Of a stretch of 64,000 bases of DNA, positions 1,477-34,951 are shown piece after piece. Within the stretch, counting starts at the first letter, position 1; the number at the start of each line of letters is the position of its first letter. This stretch comes from a virus: IMG/VR virus record IMGVR_UViG_3300027733_002357. One strand, 5' to 3'. The notes under the pieces were generated by a model that did not search any database, had not been told where the DNA came from, and was given only the letters and a program-made list of their open reading frames with translations. The translations under genes were made by a program, and so were the position numbers.

Positions 1477-2055
1477 ATGAAATACATTAAGCTTTTTGAA
1501 TCAATGATGTGGGATCGGCTTTACCACGGAAATAGGAAAGGAGATTTCCCTCCTAAAAGGAAAAGATTTGGGGCTATATTTTTAACATCCAATCTGAATT
1601 TTGCAAAGAACTTTGCTGGGTACGATGAAAGGGATATATTTCCTAATGGTGCAGTGTTTGAGGTTGAGCTTAAGCCTGGTATTAGAATAATAGATATGAT
1701 GGATACAAAATCTTGGGAAGAGATTGGTATAGAGAAGATATTATTCGATATGATAGATGATAGGTACGTCGATCCGGTTAATGGTTCTAAATTTCTTCCT
1801 GTTAGTGGATCTGGTTTATTAGGCTATGATCCTAAGACTGGAAATGAATTTCAGATTCAGAAACCAGAGGATAGTCTTTATCACTACTTATGGAGGGTTA
1901 AGCACGGAGCTTGGAGAATAATCGAATGTGCTCCTATATCTGATAAAATAGAAGATTTAGGATACGATGGATATTATGTTGTTGAGAGCTCTTCTAAAAA
2001 TGTAGCAATCTTTAGTGAAGATTCCATTATGAACTTCAAGAAATTAGAAATATGA
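1477..2055 (+). CDS. hypothetical protein with the shared N-terminal leader (MKYIKLFESM)
   Basis: Internal ATG preceded by AGGAGT; N-terminus matches the leader family; ORF-track start 1462 is probably too far upstream. Confidence 0.5.
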   Translation: MKYIKLFESMMWDRLYHGNRKGDFPPKRKRFGAIFLTSNLNFAKNFAGYDERDIFPNGAVFEVELKPGIRIIDMMDTKSWEEIGIEKILFDMIDDRYVDPVNGSKFLPVSGSGLLGYDPKTGNEFQIQKPEDSLYHYLWRVKHGAWRIIECAPISDKIEDLGYDGYYVVESSSKNVAIFSEDSIMNFKKLEI

Positions 2056-2074
2056 AGCAGGAATAACTGATTAT

Positions 2075-2320
2075 ATGCTAGGAAATGAAAAAGGGCTAGT
2101 TCAGAAGTACCCTGGTATAACTATAAACATGGCCCAATTCTGGACTTATATAAAAGGATCTATAGCACATTTTAATCGTGTTGAAGCCAGCGGAGGTCAA
2201 TTACCTTGTACACAATTCATACTATATAAGGGTAATTATTACACAATAGGGGGAAGAAGAAGAATGTTCTGGCACTTCTATAATGGAGTGGATCCTACAG
2301 TATGGGTAATGCAGCTTTAA
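2075..2320 (+). CDS. hypothetical small protein
   Basis: 81-aa ORF in the gap between convergent genes; weak. Confidence 0.25.
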   Translation: MLGNEKGLVQKYPGITINMAQFWTYIKGSIAHFNRVEASGGQLPCTQFILYKGNYYTIGGRRRMFWHFYNGVDPTVWVMQL

Positions 2321-2796
2321 AATCCTAGAAGTCTTTCGGGATCTAGATCCTTACAGTGTTCTGGTTTATTACTTCCGATGTATTTATTTAATACACAGTC
2401 ATCGTATTTCTCGTCACTATCTATTAGTCTCATTCTTGACGAAGAAATTGAAGATCTTGTTACAAACCATCCTCCAAATTCAGTGTGATTAGGATCGTAG
2501 AATAATTCTAAGTTTAAACCATCTTGATCTATCTCCCAAACATCAAAACCAAATAATGCTTTCTCTAGCATACTTGGTTCGTGGTCTAGAACATAAACGA
2601 AATTCTCAAGTCCTTCTGTTTTGCTGTCTTTCTGCCAGTTTGATGTTTTAGTACCAATTGCGGGTTTCAGCCCATTTCTTAAAATACTTTCTCTGCTAGT
2701 ATAATTGGATAGGTGATAAAGTTTACCCGAGTGTTCAGCTTTCTCAAGCTCTAATCCTTCATTAATGAATTGCGAGTATCTAAGTAGGTTTTTCAT
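2317..2796 (-). CDS. hypothetical protein with the N-terminal leader (MKNLLRYSQF)
   Basis: 159-aa ORF; leader-family N-terminus. Confidence 0.5.
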   Translation of the reverse strand: MKNLLRYSQFINEGLELEKAEHSGKLYHLSNYTSRESILRNGLKPAIGTKTSNWQKDSKTEGLENFVYVLDHEPSMLEKALFGFDVWEIDQDGLNLELFYDPNHTEFGGWFVTRSSISSSRMRLIDSDEKYDDCVLNKYIGSNKPEHCKDLDPERLLGF

Positions 2797-2827
2797 CCTA
2801 TTATATATCTTTCTTGATATATAGCAT

Positions 2828-3268
2828 ATGATACTAGATTACGCCAAATTTATACTCGAAAAAAAAGGACCTTGCTGGTCTGGTTACAAGCAGTTTGGAA
2901 CCAAAGATAAAGATGGTAAAACCGTACCTAACTGTGTAAAAGAAAATTCCGAAGTAAGCGAGAAAAAAGAAACTCATCAGGAATTTGCAGAAAATAGATT
3001 AGCGGGTGCAGCTAAAATATCTAAGGCAGCAAAAGAGAAAGGTGGCGATGCTTTATTGACATATCACCATTTCCACGTTAAGCTTCCATACTATCAAAAG
3101 AGTGCAGATGGGGAATTGGATATGGATAATCTTAAAGGAGAGTATGATGATCTATTAACTGATCTTTATGAAGCAACTAGAAACTCTATGAATATCACTC
3201 AAGTGGAATTCCAGGAGCTTGTTGGTAAAATAGAAGTTCTAGGTGAGCTTTTAATTGAAAACAAGTGA
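2828..3268 (+). CDS. hypothetical protein
   Basis: 146-aa ORF. Confidence 0.4.
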   Translation: MILDYAKFILEKKGPCWSGYKQFGTKDKDGKTVPNCVKENSEVSEKKETHQEFAENRLAGAAKISKAAKEKGGDALLTYHHFHVKLPYYQKSADGELDMDNLKGEYDDLLTDLYEATRNSMNITQVEFQELVGKIEVLGELLIENK

Positions 3269-3291
3269 TATATAACATAACAAAATTAAAT

Positions 3292-33032: not shown

Positions 33033-33129
33033 TCTACTGTATTTTATTTCTATTCATTATATATCAAGAAATAATTTGATTAGATCTAATTATAATTAAA
33101 TAGAAAAAGTATAGTGAAGAAGAAAGATA

Positions 33130-33345
33130 CTATTGGTCTTCCCTTAATCTTTTAATAACCTTGTATACTGCTTTATCAAGATCTTCGGTAGATTTTCTCA
33201 GCCCAACGTCATGTATAGTTGATAGGGATCTTGCAACCCTATTTTGATCCAATACAGCCTTATAGGATTGATCGTTTTCTTTTCTAATGATCTCGTCAGC
33301 TATTTCTTCTGCAAGCTCTTCTAAATGTCTTTCATATGATTTCAT
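33130..33345 (-). CDS. hypothetical small protein
   Basis: 71-aa ORF. Confidence 0.3.
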   Translation of the reverse strand: MKSYERHLEELAEEIADEIIRKENDQSYKAVLDQNRVARSLSTIHDVGLRKSTEDLDKAVYKVIKRLREDQ

Positions 33346-33430
33346 AATTATAATAGTATGAAATCTTTAAAATATTTCACATAAGTAACAAAGATTACAA
33401 AATCATTCCTTTTTTTAAGATATATAATAT

Positions 33431-34171
33431 ATGAAACACTTAAGATCTATCGATGAGTTTAAAAAAGTAAACGAACAACTGTTTGGTAACCAGGTAAATC
33501 AGTTATCAAAGGGAATTATGAAAATATTCGATCCTAAATCAGGAGATAGCGAAAGTAATCCTTCTAGTACAAGCAATTCAGCAGGTACAGCATCTGGTCC
33601 ACCTCCAGATAAATCTGCTGGAAATATAGGGGATTATGGAAAATTTAGCGAAGGAGCTAGTAAAACATCGCCTTTAGTTATTGTTTTTGGTGGGATACCA
33701 CAAAACGGAAAACAGAGTGGAGAATATATGTACAATTACTTCAATAAAACAGGTAATAAGTATAATCTTTTTGTTGCTGCTAATGCAAAGGTTAATGGTA
33801 AGCTATCATACGATTCAGTAATTAAAAAATTAGAGCAAAGTAGTATATCACCTTCTAAAAAGATCCTATACTTATTTTCAGGAGGATATAATCCAGGTAT
33901 GGATTTACTAAAAAGCGTAGGAGCGGATAAGTTTGATAAGATATATTTGGTTGATATATGGATGGGTAATTCTACATCATCAGATTTTTACACAAAATTA
34001 GCTAGAGATAATCGGAATAAGGTGGAATATTATTATACTAGTTTCGGAGCAAATAATAATACGGCAAAAAATTCAATATCAGGAGTAGTAGATAAATCTT
34101 CTTCCAATCTTAAAAATAACCACATGGATACTAACAACGATGCTGTAGAATCCTTAATGAAATATATTTAA
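33431..34171 (+). CDS. hypothetical protein with the N-terminal leader (MKHLRSIDEFKKVNEQLF)
   Basis: First 18 aa nearly identical to the 34178 protein, then unrelated sequence. Confidence 0.5.
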   Translation: MKHLRSIDEFKKVNEQLFGNQVNQLSKGIMKIFDPKSGDSESNPSSTSNSAGTASGPPPDKSAGNIGDYGKFSEGASKTSPLVIVFGGIPQNGKQSGEYMYNYFNKTGNKYNLFVAANAKVNGKLSYDSVIKKLEQSSISPSKKILYLFSGGYNPGMDLLKSVGADKFDKIYLVDIWMGNSTSSDFYTKLARDNRNKVEYYYTSFGANNNTAKNSISGVVDKSSSNLKNNHMDTNNDAVESLMKYI

Positions 34172-34177
34172 AAAATT

Positions 34178-34951
34178 ATGAAGCACATTAAAAGCATAGA
34201 ACAATTTAAGGCGATAAACGAGCAATTATTCGCTGCTGAGATATCAAAGTTTAACAAGCTAATGGGTATTTCTGTAGAAGAAACTGGAATGGAAGAGCCT
34301 AACCTATTTGCAGCAGAAAGCCCGGTAGGAATGGGGCAGGCTTTAGTTCCTGTTGCTAGAGTTGATACAAATCAAATGGATTCGTATGGATCTGCTGTTG
34401 GAGTAGTAGATAAGAACGATAACGCTGAAATACAACAGCCGATGGCTGGTCCTATAGGAAATATAGTTAACTCCGCTTACGCTAATCTTAATACATCAAC
34501 AAGAAAAATACCAGGAACAAAAGGAGGAAATCTAGGATGTGCAGCAGCAGCTTCTATTATATTCTATCGTGCTACTGGATATGCTATTGCAGGATCTGGA
34601 GCAGTAACTTTAGGTACAGGATCCCTTTGGTCACACATGGATGCGGAAAGTAAAAAATCTAACGGAGTCTGGAGAAAAATAACAAACTGGAAAACTGAAT
34701 CACAGCCTGGTGATATAATATTAACAGCAAGAGGATCAAGACCTGGACACGTTGGTGTAGTAGTAGACGGAGGAAATATAATTTCAAATTCATCTGGTGG
34801 ATTTAAAGGGGACCAAAAAGGACAAGTCGAAATGAATTACAATCTTAATAGCTGGGACAGTGTTGCTAATAGGAATCCATCACAAACTGCAGCATTTAGA
34901 TACGTTGGACCTTACAAGAGAACTTGGGCTCCTACACAGCAAATTGCATAA
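34178..34951 (+). CDS. CHAP-domain (Cys/His amidase-peptidase)-like protein with the N-terminal leader (MKHIKSIEQFKAINEQLF)
   Basis: 'GNLGCAAAASIIFY' (Cys) and 'GHVGVVVDGGNIIS' (His) in CHAP-like spacing. Confidence 0.45.
   Translation: MKHIKSIEQFKAINEQLFAAEISKFNKLMGISVEETGMEEPNLFAAESPVGMGQALVPVARVDTNQMDSYGSAVGVVDKNDNAEIQQPMAGPIGNIVNSAYANLNTSTRKIPGTKGGNLGCAAAASIIFYRATGYAIAGSGAVTLGTGSLWSHMDAESKKSNGVWRKITNWKTESQPGDIILTARGSRPGHVGVVVDGGNIISNSSGGFKGDQKGQVEMNYNLNSWDSVANRNPSQTAAFRYVGPYKRTWAPTQQIA

Follow-up and report, generated by a model that had tools for sequence, protein, structure and literature searches.

Introduction

Bacteriophage T4 addresses proteins to its head with the capsid-targeting sequence (CTS) MKTYQEFIAE, which is removed by a single cleavage and causes any protein fused to it to be packaged. 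Suppressor analysis assigned CTS residues 4 and 7 to targeting and residues 8 and 10 to processing (PMC9026906), and the proteases of the T4 family cleave after Glu within a three-residue motif (PMC5694885). The polymorphic internal-protein (IP) loci of T-even phages encode diverse IPs with only the CTS in common (PMC3012670, PMC9026906), and in phiKZ, 201phi2-1 and SPN3US head-internal and ejection proteins are processed after Glu by a gp21-related protease (PMC5694885). T4 Alt, an ADP-ribosyltransferase that is packaged in the head at 40 copies and injected, also loses an N-terminal propeptide. Here, we describe a leader of about 13 residues, with the consensus MK[HY]IK[LT]FExF[IVL]NE, at the start of otherwise unrelated proteins encoded in a 64-kb stretch of DNA from an uncultured phage (IMG/VR virus record IMGVR_UViG_3300027733_002357; GC 31-41%), hereafter the window. 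A first-pass annotation of this DNA had reported at least 12 such proteins and likened their common start to the T4 CTS.

Judged from its sequence, the leader is probably a T4 CTS-like capsid-targeting propeptide, in a 13-residue form, employed across a large clade of uncultured T4-related phages. The tag principle is already known from T-even phages; the distinct 13-residue form, found on a large and varied set of cargo, is the new part. As with T4 IPI, IPII, IPIII and Alt, a short N-terminal peptide is common to otherwise unrelated, non-essential proteins, the critical pattern is aromatic, x, x, Phe, aliphatic, x, Glu, and related genomes encode a gp21/S77 protease, a gp20-type portal and a gp23-type capsid protein; late co-expression would be a further likeness, as would the predicted ADP-ribosyltransferase fold of one cargo protein, which recalls Alt. 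The leader has 13 residues rather than 10, contains an H-I-K segment and an internal L-F-E site that the T4 CTS lacks, and has the consensus MKHIKLFEQFINE as opposed to MKTYQEFIAE. Whereas T4 has three or four cargo proteins, at least 10 cargo genes lie within 64 kb here and up to 14 stand in tandem elsewhere; the clade protease is fused to the scaffold; and this system is known from sequence alone. A constant address tag would, as in the T-even IP loci, permit fast turnover of injected anti-defence or take-over proteins, but the tagged genes here are scattered over at least 40 kb, are far more numerous and belong to an uncultured aquatic lineage. In phiKZ, 201phi2-1 and SPN3US, most propeptides exceed 100 residues, each kind is confined to paralogues and the motifs used are S/A/G-x-E, whereas the leader has 13 residues, carries [LIV]-x-E and occurs among non-paralogues. 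Capsid-stored, ejected proteins are also found among podoviruses (P22 gp7/16/20, the T7 core, the cyanophage A4 pre-ejectosome), but these are components of a structural conduit and the leader cargo is a variable set. To our knowledge, podovirus ejection proteins are not marked by a common N-terminal address tag that is cleaved off.

Results and discussion

A common leader on proteins that are otherwise unrelated

Among the 97 predicted proteins of the window, 16 pairs of N-terminal 10-mers reached a BLOSUM62 score of at least 20, as compared to 0-1 pairs for internal Met-started 10-mers and 1-4 pairs for column-shuffled N-termini. A position-specific scoring matrix (PSSM), trained on IMG/VR sequences outside the window, was used to score 916 candidate starts within it. 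The six highest scores fell on 28927, 29933, 34178, 1477, 4116 and 3292, followed by 2796(-), 13810 and 33032(-) (Table 1). All twelve N-termini that the first-pass annotation had listed are present in the sequence, but its count of at least 12 proteins with one leader stood only in part. By their N-terminal sequences, 1477, 3292, 4116, 28927, 29933 and 34178 are strong members, and 2796(-), 13810, 33032(-) and 33431 are probable ones; 14718 and 37700, together with an additional candidate at 26587, are doubtful and match only in a shifted register. The gene annotated at 28924 probably begins at GTG 28927, giving MKHLKLFENF; the GATATATA box described below lies 4 nt upstream of this GTG and just 1 nt upstream of ATG 28924. 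Two further leader genes are located just left of the window (L007:5967 and L007:6250).

Past the leader, all-against-all BLASTP found no other similarity among these proteins, as had been claimed, with the exception of 33431 and 34178, which have their first 59 residues in common and nothing further. The extended 18-residue leader (..[VI]NEQLF) reported for 4116, 33431 and 34178 was confirmed, and the proposed L/I-x-E cleavage motif has a candidate counterpart, [LIV]-x-E ending at residues 8-17, in 12/12 of the proteins claimed. The pattern of a Sec, Tat or lipoprotein signal peptide, with a positively charged N-region and then a hydrophobic core of 10-20 residues, was not found in the leader, which is rich in K, E and Q and has no hydrophobic run; signal-peptide-like starts in the window, e.g. 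43597(-) and 63922(-), differ from it.

Could these be full-length paralogues, the outcome that the first-pass annotation had set against its own proposal, or does the resemblance stem from chance or from the composition of AT-rich N-termini? In a genome of 34% GC, MK- starts and AT-rich codons are frequent, and the 59 residues shared by 33431 and 34178 would fit paralogy for that pair. Yet BLASTP similarity ends after the leader, the high-scoring pairs (16) exceed those in the shuffled and internal controls (0-4), PSSM scores are sharply bimodal, and, once the leader is set aside, 140 leader proteins from IMG/VR (below) average only 5% column identity. These findings rule out both paralogy and chance, which have, in our judgment, almost no probability left.

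Distribution of the leader and level of selection

The leader is virus-specific and very widespread. A single degenerate DNA pattern for M-K-[HYND]-I-K-x-F-E-x-F was used to scan IMG/VR and matched at least 120 loci, with 140 distinct proteins among the matches listed, on contigs with a GC content of 22-46% and a length of up to 482 kb. Nearly all of these 140 proteins have an in-frame stop a few codons 5' of the start, and one 15-kb locus (L078) contains 14 leader genes. Positions that the pattern left unconstrained are nonetheless conserved: residue 6 is L or T, residue 11 is [IVL] in 61%, residue 12 is N in 44% and residue 13 is E in 64%. Nothing is conserved past residue 13, in agreement with the abrupt end of identity that had been predicted. 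The same pattern matched only 78 times in 596 Gb of bacterial and archaeal genomes, mostly in internal positions or tiny open reading frames (ORFs); 19 of these matches stand at plausible ORF starts, with typical leaders on contigs of metagenome-assembled genomes, several of them binned as Bacteroidota. A 40-column leader profile gave no match in a word-indexed protein search (9 candidates). HMMER, run with a profile of the window leaders, returned eight matches at E<=0.001, six of them starting at residue 1, a consistent result, although one that is uninformative on abundance. The leader sequence was not found in the literature searched.

For K, I, F, E, Q and N, synonymous codon choice within the leader is close to that in the rest of the same genes, an indication that the peptide is the main target of selection. 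A Bacteroidota sigma-A promoter (TAnnTTTG) within codons 5-8 was considered and rejected, its spacing being unfit, as were recombination cassettes like the T4 PeSLs, since the leader DNA is too divergent among copies.

Two ORFs, P0127 and P0128, contain two leader copies within one reading frame (MKQVKLYEEFVNEATNMKHIKLFEDF...), which suggests fusions or read-through of adjacent leader genes. A different N-terminal leader, MKKQILSEQF[RK]RMQ.LAGIITES, is common to two proteins of Flavobacterium phage immuto (NC_055915; L133:11675 and L134:25061), and other phages may use other shared tags.

Correspondence with the T4 CTS and T4-type head modules

When Y4-Q-E-F7-I8-A-E10 of the T4 CTS is aligned with F7-E-Q-F10-[IVL]11-N-E13 of the leader, the four critical T4 residues fall on the most conserved leader positions, so far as a sequence alignment can tell. 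Two of the leader loci, L106 and L038, are head modules, and their portals were used to fetch 80 related modules from among at least 491 relatives, whose contigs reach 176 kb. The closest GenBank portals to this clade are those of huge uncultured phages, Lak, Tenacibaculum phage PTm1 and Sphingomonas phage PAU. Each module runs from a portal (Portal_T4, 5e-71) through an acidic protein of 110-134 aa and a protease-scaffold fusion (Peptidase_S77, the gp21 family, 3e-14; phrog_207, 8e-41) to a capsid protein (Gp23, 9e-43). A gp21-type protease, a gp20-type portal and a gp23-type capsid protein thus occur in related contigs that carry the leader (L106/L135, L038 and the 80 loci).

The small protein after the portal begins with the leader in 76/76 modules, in 25 variants such as MKYVKLFEQFIKE, MKIIKTFEDFISE and MKNLKTFEDFIST. 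In T4, the slot after the portal holds the prohead-core genes 67 and 68; the clade has a leader gene in the same slot. Of 593 distinct module ORFs, 36 had a PSSM score of at least 5, all of them head-module genes with the leader or a close variant, and the next score was -4.3. Extra leader ORFs lie between the protease and capsid genes in L137, L146, L205 and L206 (MQYVKLFEQFINEA..., MKYVKLFEQFLITE...), and the gene after the capsid gene starts with MKLSKKLMLFEEF or MKLKSKLKLYEEFVNES, the leader core shifted by a few residues. Other head proteins also begin much as in T4: the clade protease with M.N...LLIVE, as compared to MNEPQLLIE in T4 gp21, in which LIE-9 is the proposed autocleavage site, and the clade capsid protein with MANL[IL]NEAEI, as compared to MAKINELLRE in T4 gp24. 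Together with the modularity of the leader and the upstream box described below, the head-module context and the match to critical CTS residues support what the first-pass annotation had proposed, a T4-like capsid-targeting leader on unrelated cargo.

A region of about 60 nt is conserved 5' of the capsid gene (L135:10849-10963 and equivalents; gaaagaagcagaaagccca...cgaatgtcga), downstream of a GATATATA box, and may form a structured RNA or serve as a regulatory element.

An upstream box shared with head genes

A [GA]ATATATA box lies 4-25 nt 5' of 9/10 robust leader genes of the window, as compared to 14/87 other genes (Fisher p=4.9e-6). The box occurs in 28 copies in the window, and GATATATA is found 17 times against 7.4 expected. 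Copies also precede the tail-fibre-like gene 11584-12636(-), at 12641-12648(-), and the endolysin gene, at 51572-51579. In the head modules the box, with GATAAATA as a variant, precedes the portal, protease-scaffold and post-capsid genes without exception, and most post-portal leader genes (Table 1). For T4 genes 20, 22 and 24, the late promoter TATAAATA begins some 36-37 nt upstream, and the placement of the box before the clade portal and protease genes mirrors this. By analogy, the box is probably the late promoter of the clade. Since it is common to head genes and to the leader genes of the window, the latter would be late genes whose products are made during head assembly.

The position of the box also bears on a translational explanation of the leader. 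Six leader genes have exactly 4-5 nt between the end of the box and the start codon, so that the mRNA would be leaderless or nearly so, and the upstream regions are A-rich and have no Shine-Dalgarno sequence. The conserved start could accordingly be a translation or transcription module, a 5' coding region optimised for late mRNAs of this kind and selected at the RNA level, with a functionless peptide. Two synonymous skews, a preference for CAC at His3 and for codon 6 to end in A, point the same way. However, most synonymous sites vary as they do in gene bodies, and amino-acid order is kept across contigs of 22-46% GC. The leader is also found on genes with 13-25 nt between box and ATG, and seven window genes with the box at -10 to -12 lack it (63, 590, 2828, 12636(-), 31465(-), 31501 and 55348(-)), which makes a purely translational explanation weak. 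Portal, protease and capsid genes have the same box and no leader, and AU-richness does not explain aromatic and aliphatic residues followed by Glu at the spacing of the T4 CTS. A functionless peptide is therefore quite improbable.

A second upstream motif, AACCAATTAAAC, recurs to the left of the window (L007:1-5500), where many small genes have it about 10-20 nt 5' of the ATG; it may represent another, perhaps early, promoter class. Within the window (23949-23959(-) and 50810-50820(-)) it is not above chance.

Cargo proteins

The best characterised cargo is the 1477 protein, for which 142 homologues were found, with the leader kept in 42/42 of those aligned. Its AlphaFold model (predicted local distance difference test, pLDDT, 90.8) has an ADP-ribosyltransferase-superfamily fold, from which the leader projects as a predicted disordered N-terminal appendage, residues 1-11 scoring below 50. 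Fold relatives listed for the model are RES toxins, ParT, MbcT, diphtheria toxin, PARPs and AcrIF11, and a cyanophage A4 pre-ejectosome protein with an ADP-ribosyltransferase-like domain (9k3a_B) is among the best structural matches. The CHAP-like domain that had been assigned to a leader protein is plausible for 34178, but the match is weak: PF05257 reaches E=2.7e-5 (residues 121-198), just under the curated cut-off, within a weak CHAP/NlpC-P60 signature, and phrog_998 (endolysin) reaches E=1.3e-4. The PG_binding_1 domain also assigned to a leader protein is on none in the window; it belongs to a GH19 endolysin (51597-52439) that starts with MLLKNGSK, has no leader and lies outside the range annotated. 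In a scan of ten leader proteins against Pfam and PHROGs, all were ORFans. The L061 orthologue of the 4116 protein (64% identity) retains MRYIKSIDQFINEQLF.

Beyond the window, about 85% of the 140 IMG/VR leader proteins (among the matches listed) have no Pfam match. The remainder include GNAT acetyltransferases, 2H/Acb1-like phosphoesterases, leucine-rich-repeat proteins, DUF5824, NT5C, an NMNAT-like cytidylyltransferase and PG_binding_1 proteins.

This range of cargo bears on another explanation, that the leader is a docking or regulatory tag unconnected with head packaging, such as a degron (e.g. for the ClpP-like protein 37105-37677; PF00574, 1.4e-26) or a short motif for binding to a single shared partner from the host or the phage. 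The presence of that protease in the window, the modelled disorder of the leader, the location of many leader genes in accessory or replication regions rather than in structural modules, and metabolic enzymes among the cargo would all suit such a tag. It leaves unexplained, however, why a leader protein is fixed in 76/76 T4-type head modules, why the conserved leader residues match those that govern targeting and processing in the T4 CTS and why a late-type box precedes the genes; moreover, the sole homologue of the window ClpP-like protein in the fetched loci is a weak one (L099, 31% identity). We regard a tag of this type as unlikely.

Proposed mechanism, weight and implications

Docking, cleavage, packaging and ejection of the leader proteins are steps that we infer. 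Leader genes would be transcribed late from the [GA]ATATATA promoter. The leader, M-K-[HY]-I-K-[LT]-F-E-x-F-[IVL]-N-E, would form a flexible, probably amphipathic appendage that docks the cargo on the prohead scaffold or core, and a gp21-type (S77) prohead protease would cut after Glu in [LIV]-x-E. The cut may fall behind L-F-E (residue 8), [IVL]-N-E (residue 13) or both; in leaders with a short insertion, the candidate position is residues 15-17. Cleavage would free the mature cargo in the head, to be ejected with the DNA. Cargo encoded in the window would comprise an ADP-ribosyltransferase-fold enzyme (1477), a CHAP-like peptidoglycan hydrolase (34178) and at least eight ORFans.

Several observations weigh against capsid targeting. 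No portal, S77 protease or full capsid gene is present within the 64-kb window, which encodes no more than a truncated Gp23-like paralogue and a ClpP-like protease in their place; the connection with a T4-type head thus runs through relatedness and not through direct observation. No cultured phage with the leader was found by tblastn of a tandem consensus against GenBank phages (chance matches at E~4, the query being too short), and tblastn of the leader protein family of L032 gave no cultured relative. Flavobacterium phage immuto has a T4-like head and no leader in the 100/160 kb scanned, and Tenacibaculum phage PTm1 has the same head-module architecture with no leader in the head module. Ordinary-looking enzymes among the cargo (NT5C, NMNAT-like, a P-loop protein) do not require packaging, and many leader genes adjoin replication and nucleotide-metabolism genes. 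Some window leaders are degenerate, with the candidate cleavage site shifting between residues 8 and 17. In the heterogeneous IMG/VR set the association with the box is modest (25% vs 16% before leader genes, p=0.04), and the skews at His3 and codon 6 indicate some RNA-level constraint alongside that on the peptide.

If the leader is a capsid-targeting propeptide, what has been a T4 curiosity, with three or four CTS-bearing internal proteins, would widen into a general principle, open to computation, that holds for an abundant phage group of the environment. Every ORF with MK[HY]IK[LT]FExF[IVL]NE at its start would be a candidate injected protein, and the tag a marker readable from sequence, with which the 'first-strike' anti-defence and take-over arsenals of uncultured phages could be listed from metagenomes alone. 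Among ORFans, it would lead directly to new effectors of anti-defence and host take-over. More than 10% of genes in the window region would be capsid cargo, [GA]ATATATA would be a candidate late promoter for the clade, and phage engineering would gain a second natural packaging tag, usable for foreign proteins. A wider proposal, that the clade loads dozens of effectors per genome for injection (ADP-ribosyltransferase-fold, CHAP, GNAT, Acb1-like, NAD-salvage-like and others) through this one 13-residue tag, we consider evenly balanced.

The window and its other genes

The phage recurs in assemblies from freshwater-lake metagenomes (JGI contigs, up to ~69 kb), and overlapping contigs reach ~100 nt past the right edge of the window and 5-8 kb past the left edge. 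No close GenBank relative was found among phages by megablast with 8.4 kb of the window or tblastn with the CHAP protein, and an exact 38-mer from the window had no match in IMG/VR. Several window proteins are 56-70% identical to their immuto counterparts. The window encodes a Dda-like helicase, tail-fibre-like proteins, glycosyltransferases and proteins with a type IX secretion system (T9SS) sorting domain. Coordinates of the leader genes and boxes are collected in Table 1. Gene 34178 lies directly 3' of 33431, and the two are probably co-transcribed. After its N-terminus, the doubtful 14718 protein consists of a Gly/Thr/Ala-rich collagen-like repeat, with weak tail-fibre and collagen-like PHROG matches.

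Table 1. Leader genes and candidates in the window, with upstream boxes in the window and in related head modules. For head-module boxes, the position is relative to the start of the gene named.
Feature	Position	Strand	Length	Start or box sequence	PSSM score	Upstream box	Remarks
Leader gene	1477..2055	+	192 aa	MKYIKLFESM	16.5		L-F-E ends at residue 8
Probable leader gene	2317..2796	-	159 aa	MKNLLRYSQFINE	3.2	2802-2809(-), GATATATA	I-N-E ends at residue 13; no Pfam or PHROG match
Leader gene	3292..4047	+	251 aa	MKNIKPFDNFFSSSIFE	12.4	3267-3274	ORFan
Leader gene	4116..4769	+	217 aa	MRHIKSRDQFVNEQLF	15.2	4104-4111, 4 nt from ATG	Extended leader, then low-complexity linker
Probable leader gene	13810..14409	+	199 aa	MKHLSLYENH	1.9	13798-13805, 4 nt from ATG	
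Doubtful member	14718..16238	+	506 aa	MKSNILDFRSYNRLYE		14695-14702	Register shifted
Doubtful extra candidate	26587..28221	+	544 aa	MGNYLQSFDQF		26559-26566, GATATATA	
Leader gene	28927..29541	+	204 aa from GTG 28927	MKHLKLFENF	25.2	28915-28922, GATATATA	Best score in the window
Leader gene	29933..30364	+	143 aa	MNHIKLFEQFKQGLLKE	23.7	29912-29919	ORFan
Probable leader gene	31818..33032	-	404 aa	MKNILSFQNWSDLNE		33058-33065(-)	
Probable leader gene	33431..34171	+	246 aa	MKHLRSIDEFKKVNEQLF		33419-33426, 4 nt from ATG	Extended leader with 2-residue insertion
Leader gene	34178..34951	+	257 aa	MKHIKSIEQFKAINEQLF	18.1		
Doubtful member	37700..38353	+	217 aa	MGKNVTSFNLFEQN	<0	37686-37693, AATATATA	Core ..LFEQ.. 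only
Box, example copy	1464..1471	+		[GA]ATATATA			5' of the 1477 gene
Head-module box, portal	-28 to -34						34/34 unique upstream regions
Head-module box, protease-scaffold	-25 to -36						30/30 unique upstream regions
Head-module box, post-capsid gene	-24 to -48						24/24 unique upstream regions
Head-module box, post-portal leader gene	-10 (24 regions); -13 or -14 (4 regions)						28/38 unique upstream regions

The hosts of the clade are probably Bacteroidota. In the window, 42106-50798(-) is a block of genes for proteins with signal peptides, Ig-like domains and T9SS C-terminal sorting domains, 33-70% identical to immuto proteins, which indicates a Bacteroidota (Flavobacterium-like) host.

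The truncated Gp23-like protein, 57928-58797(-), has 289 aa (PF07068, 8e-16) and aligns only to the C-terminal half of the capsid protein of the head-module clade (residues 225-451), at 23% identity; its neighbours are SPFH/Band7, nucleoside deoxyribosyltransferase and glycosyltransferase genes. The ClpP-like serine protease gene, 37105-37677(+), whose product also matches phrog_94 'head maturation protease' (3e-29), adjoins the helicase gene outside any head module, and the protease differs in type from the S77 enzyme of the related head modules.

Three tail-fibre-like proteins, 6523-8097(+), 8885-11572(-) and 11584-12636(-), have a different N-terminus in common, M..[ST]RPFAYN..., and are similar over 80-350 residues, which identifies them as true paralogues; two of them, 6523 and 11584-12636, have concanavalin/Laminin_G_3 domains. 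Four further paralogues of ~100 aa are encoded on the plus strand at 1036-1362, 4772-5053, 13062-13376 and 31501-31809, the last with a precomputed Lcl_C match. Finally, 52707-53867(+), in the highest-GC stretch of the window, encodes a protein of 386 aa with a Lys-rich N-terminus and no family match, and contains internal direct repeats of ~66 nt that are 87% identical (53590-53770).

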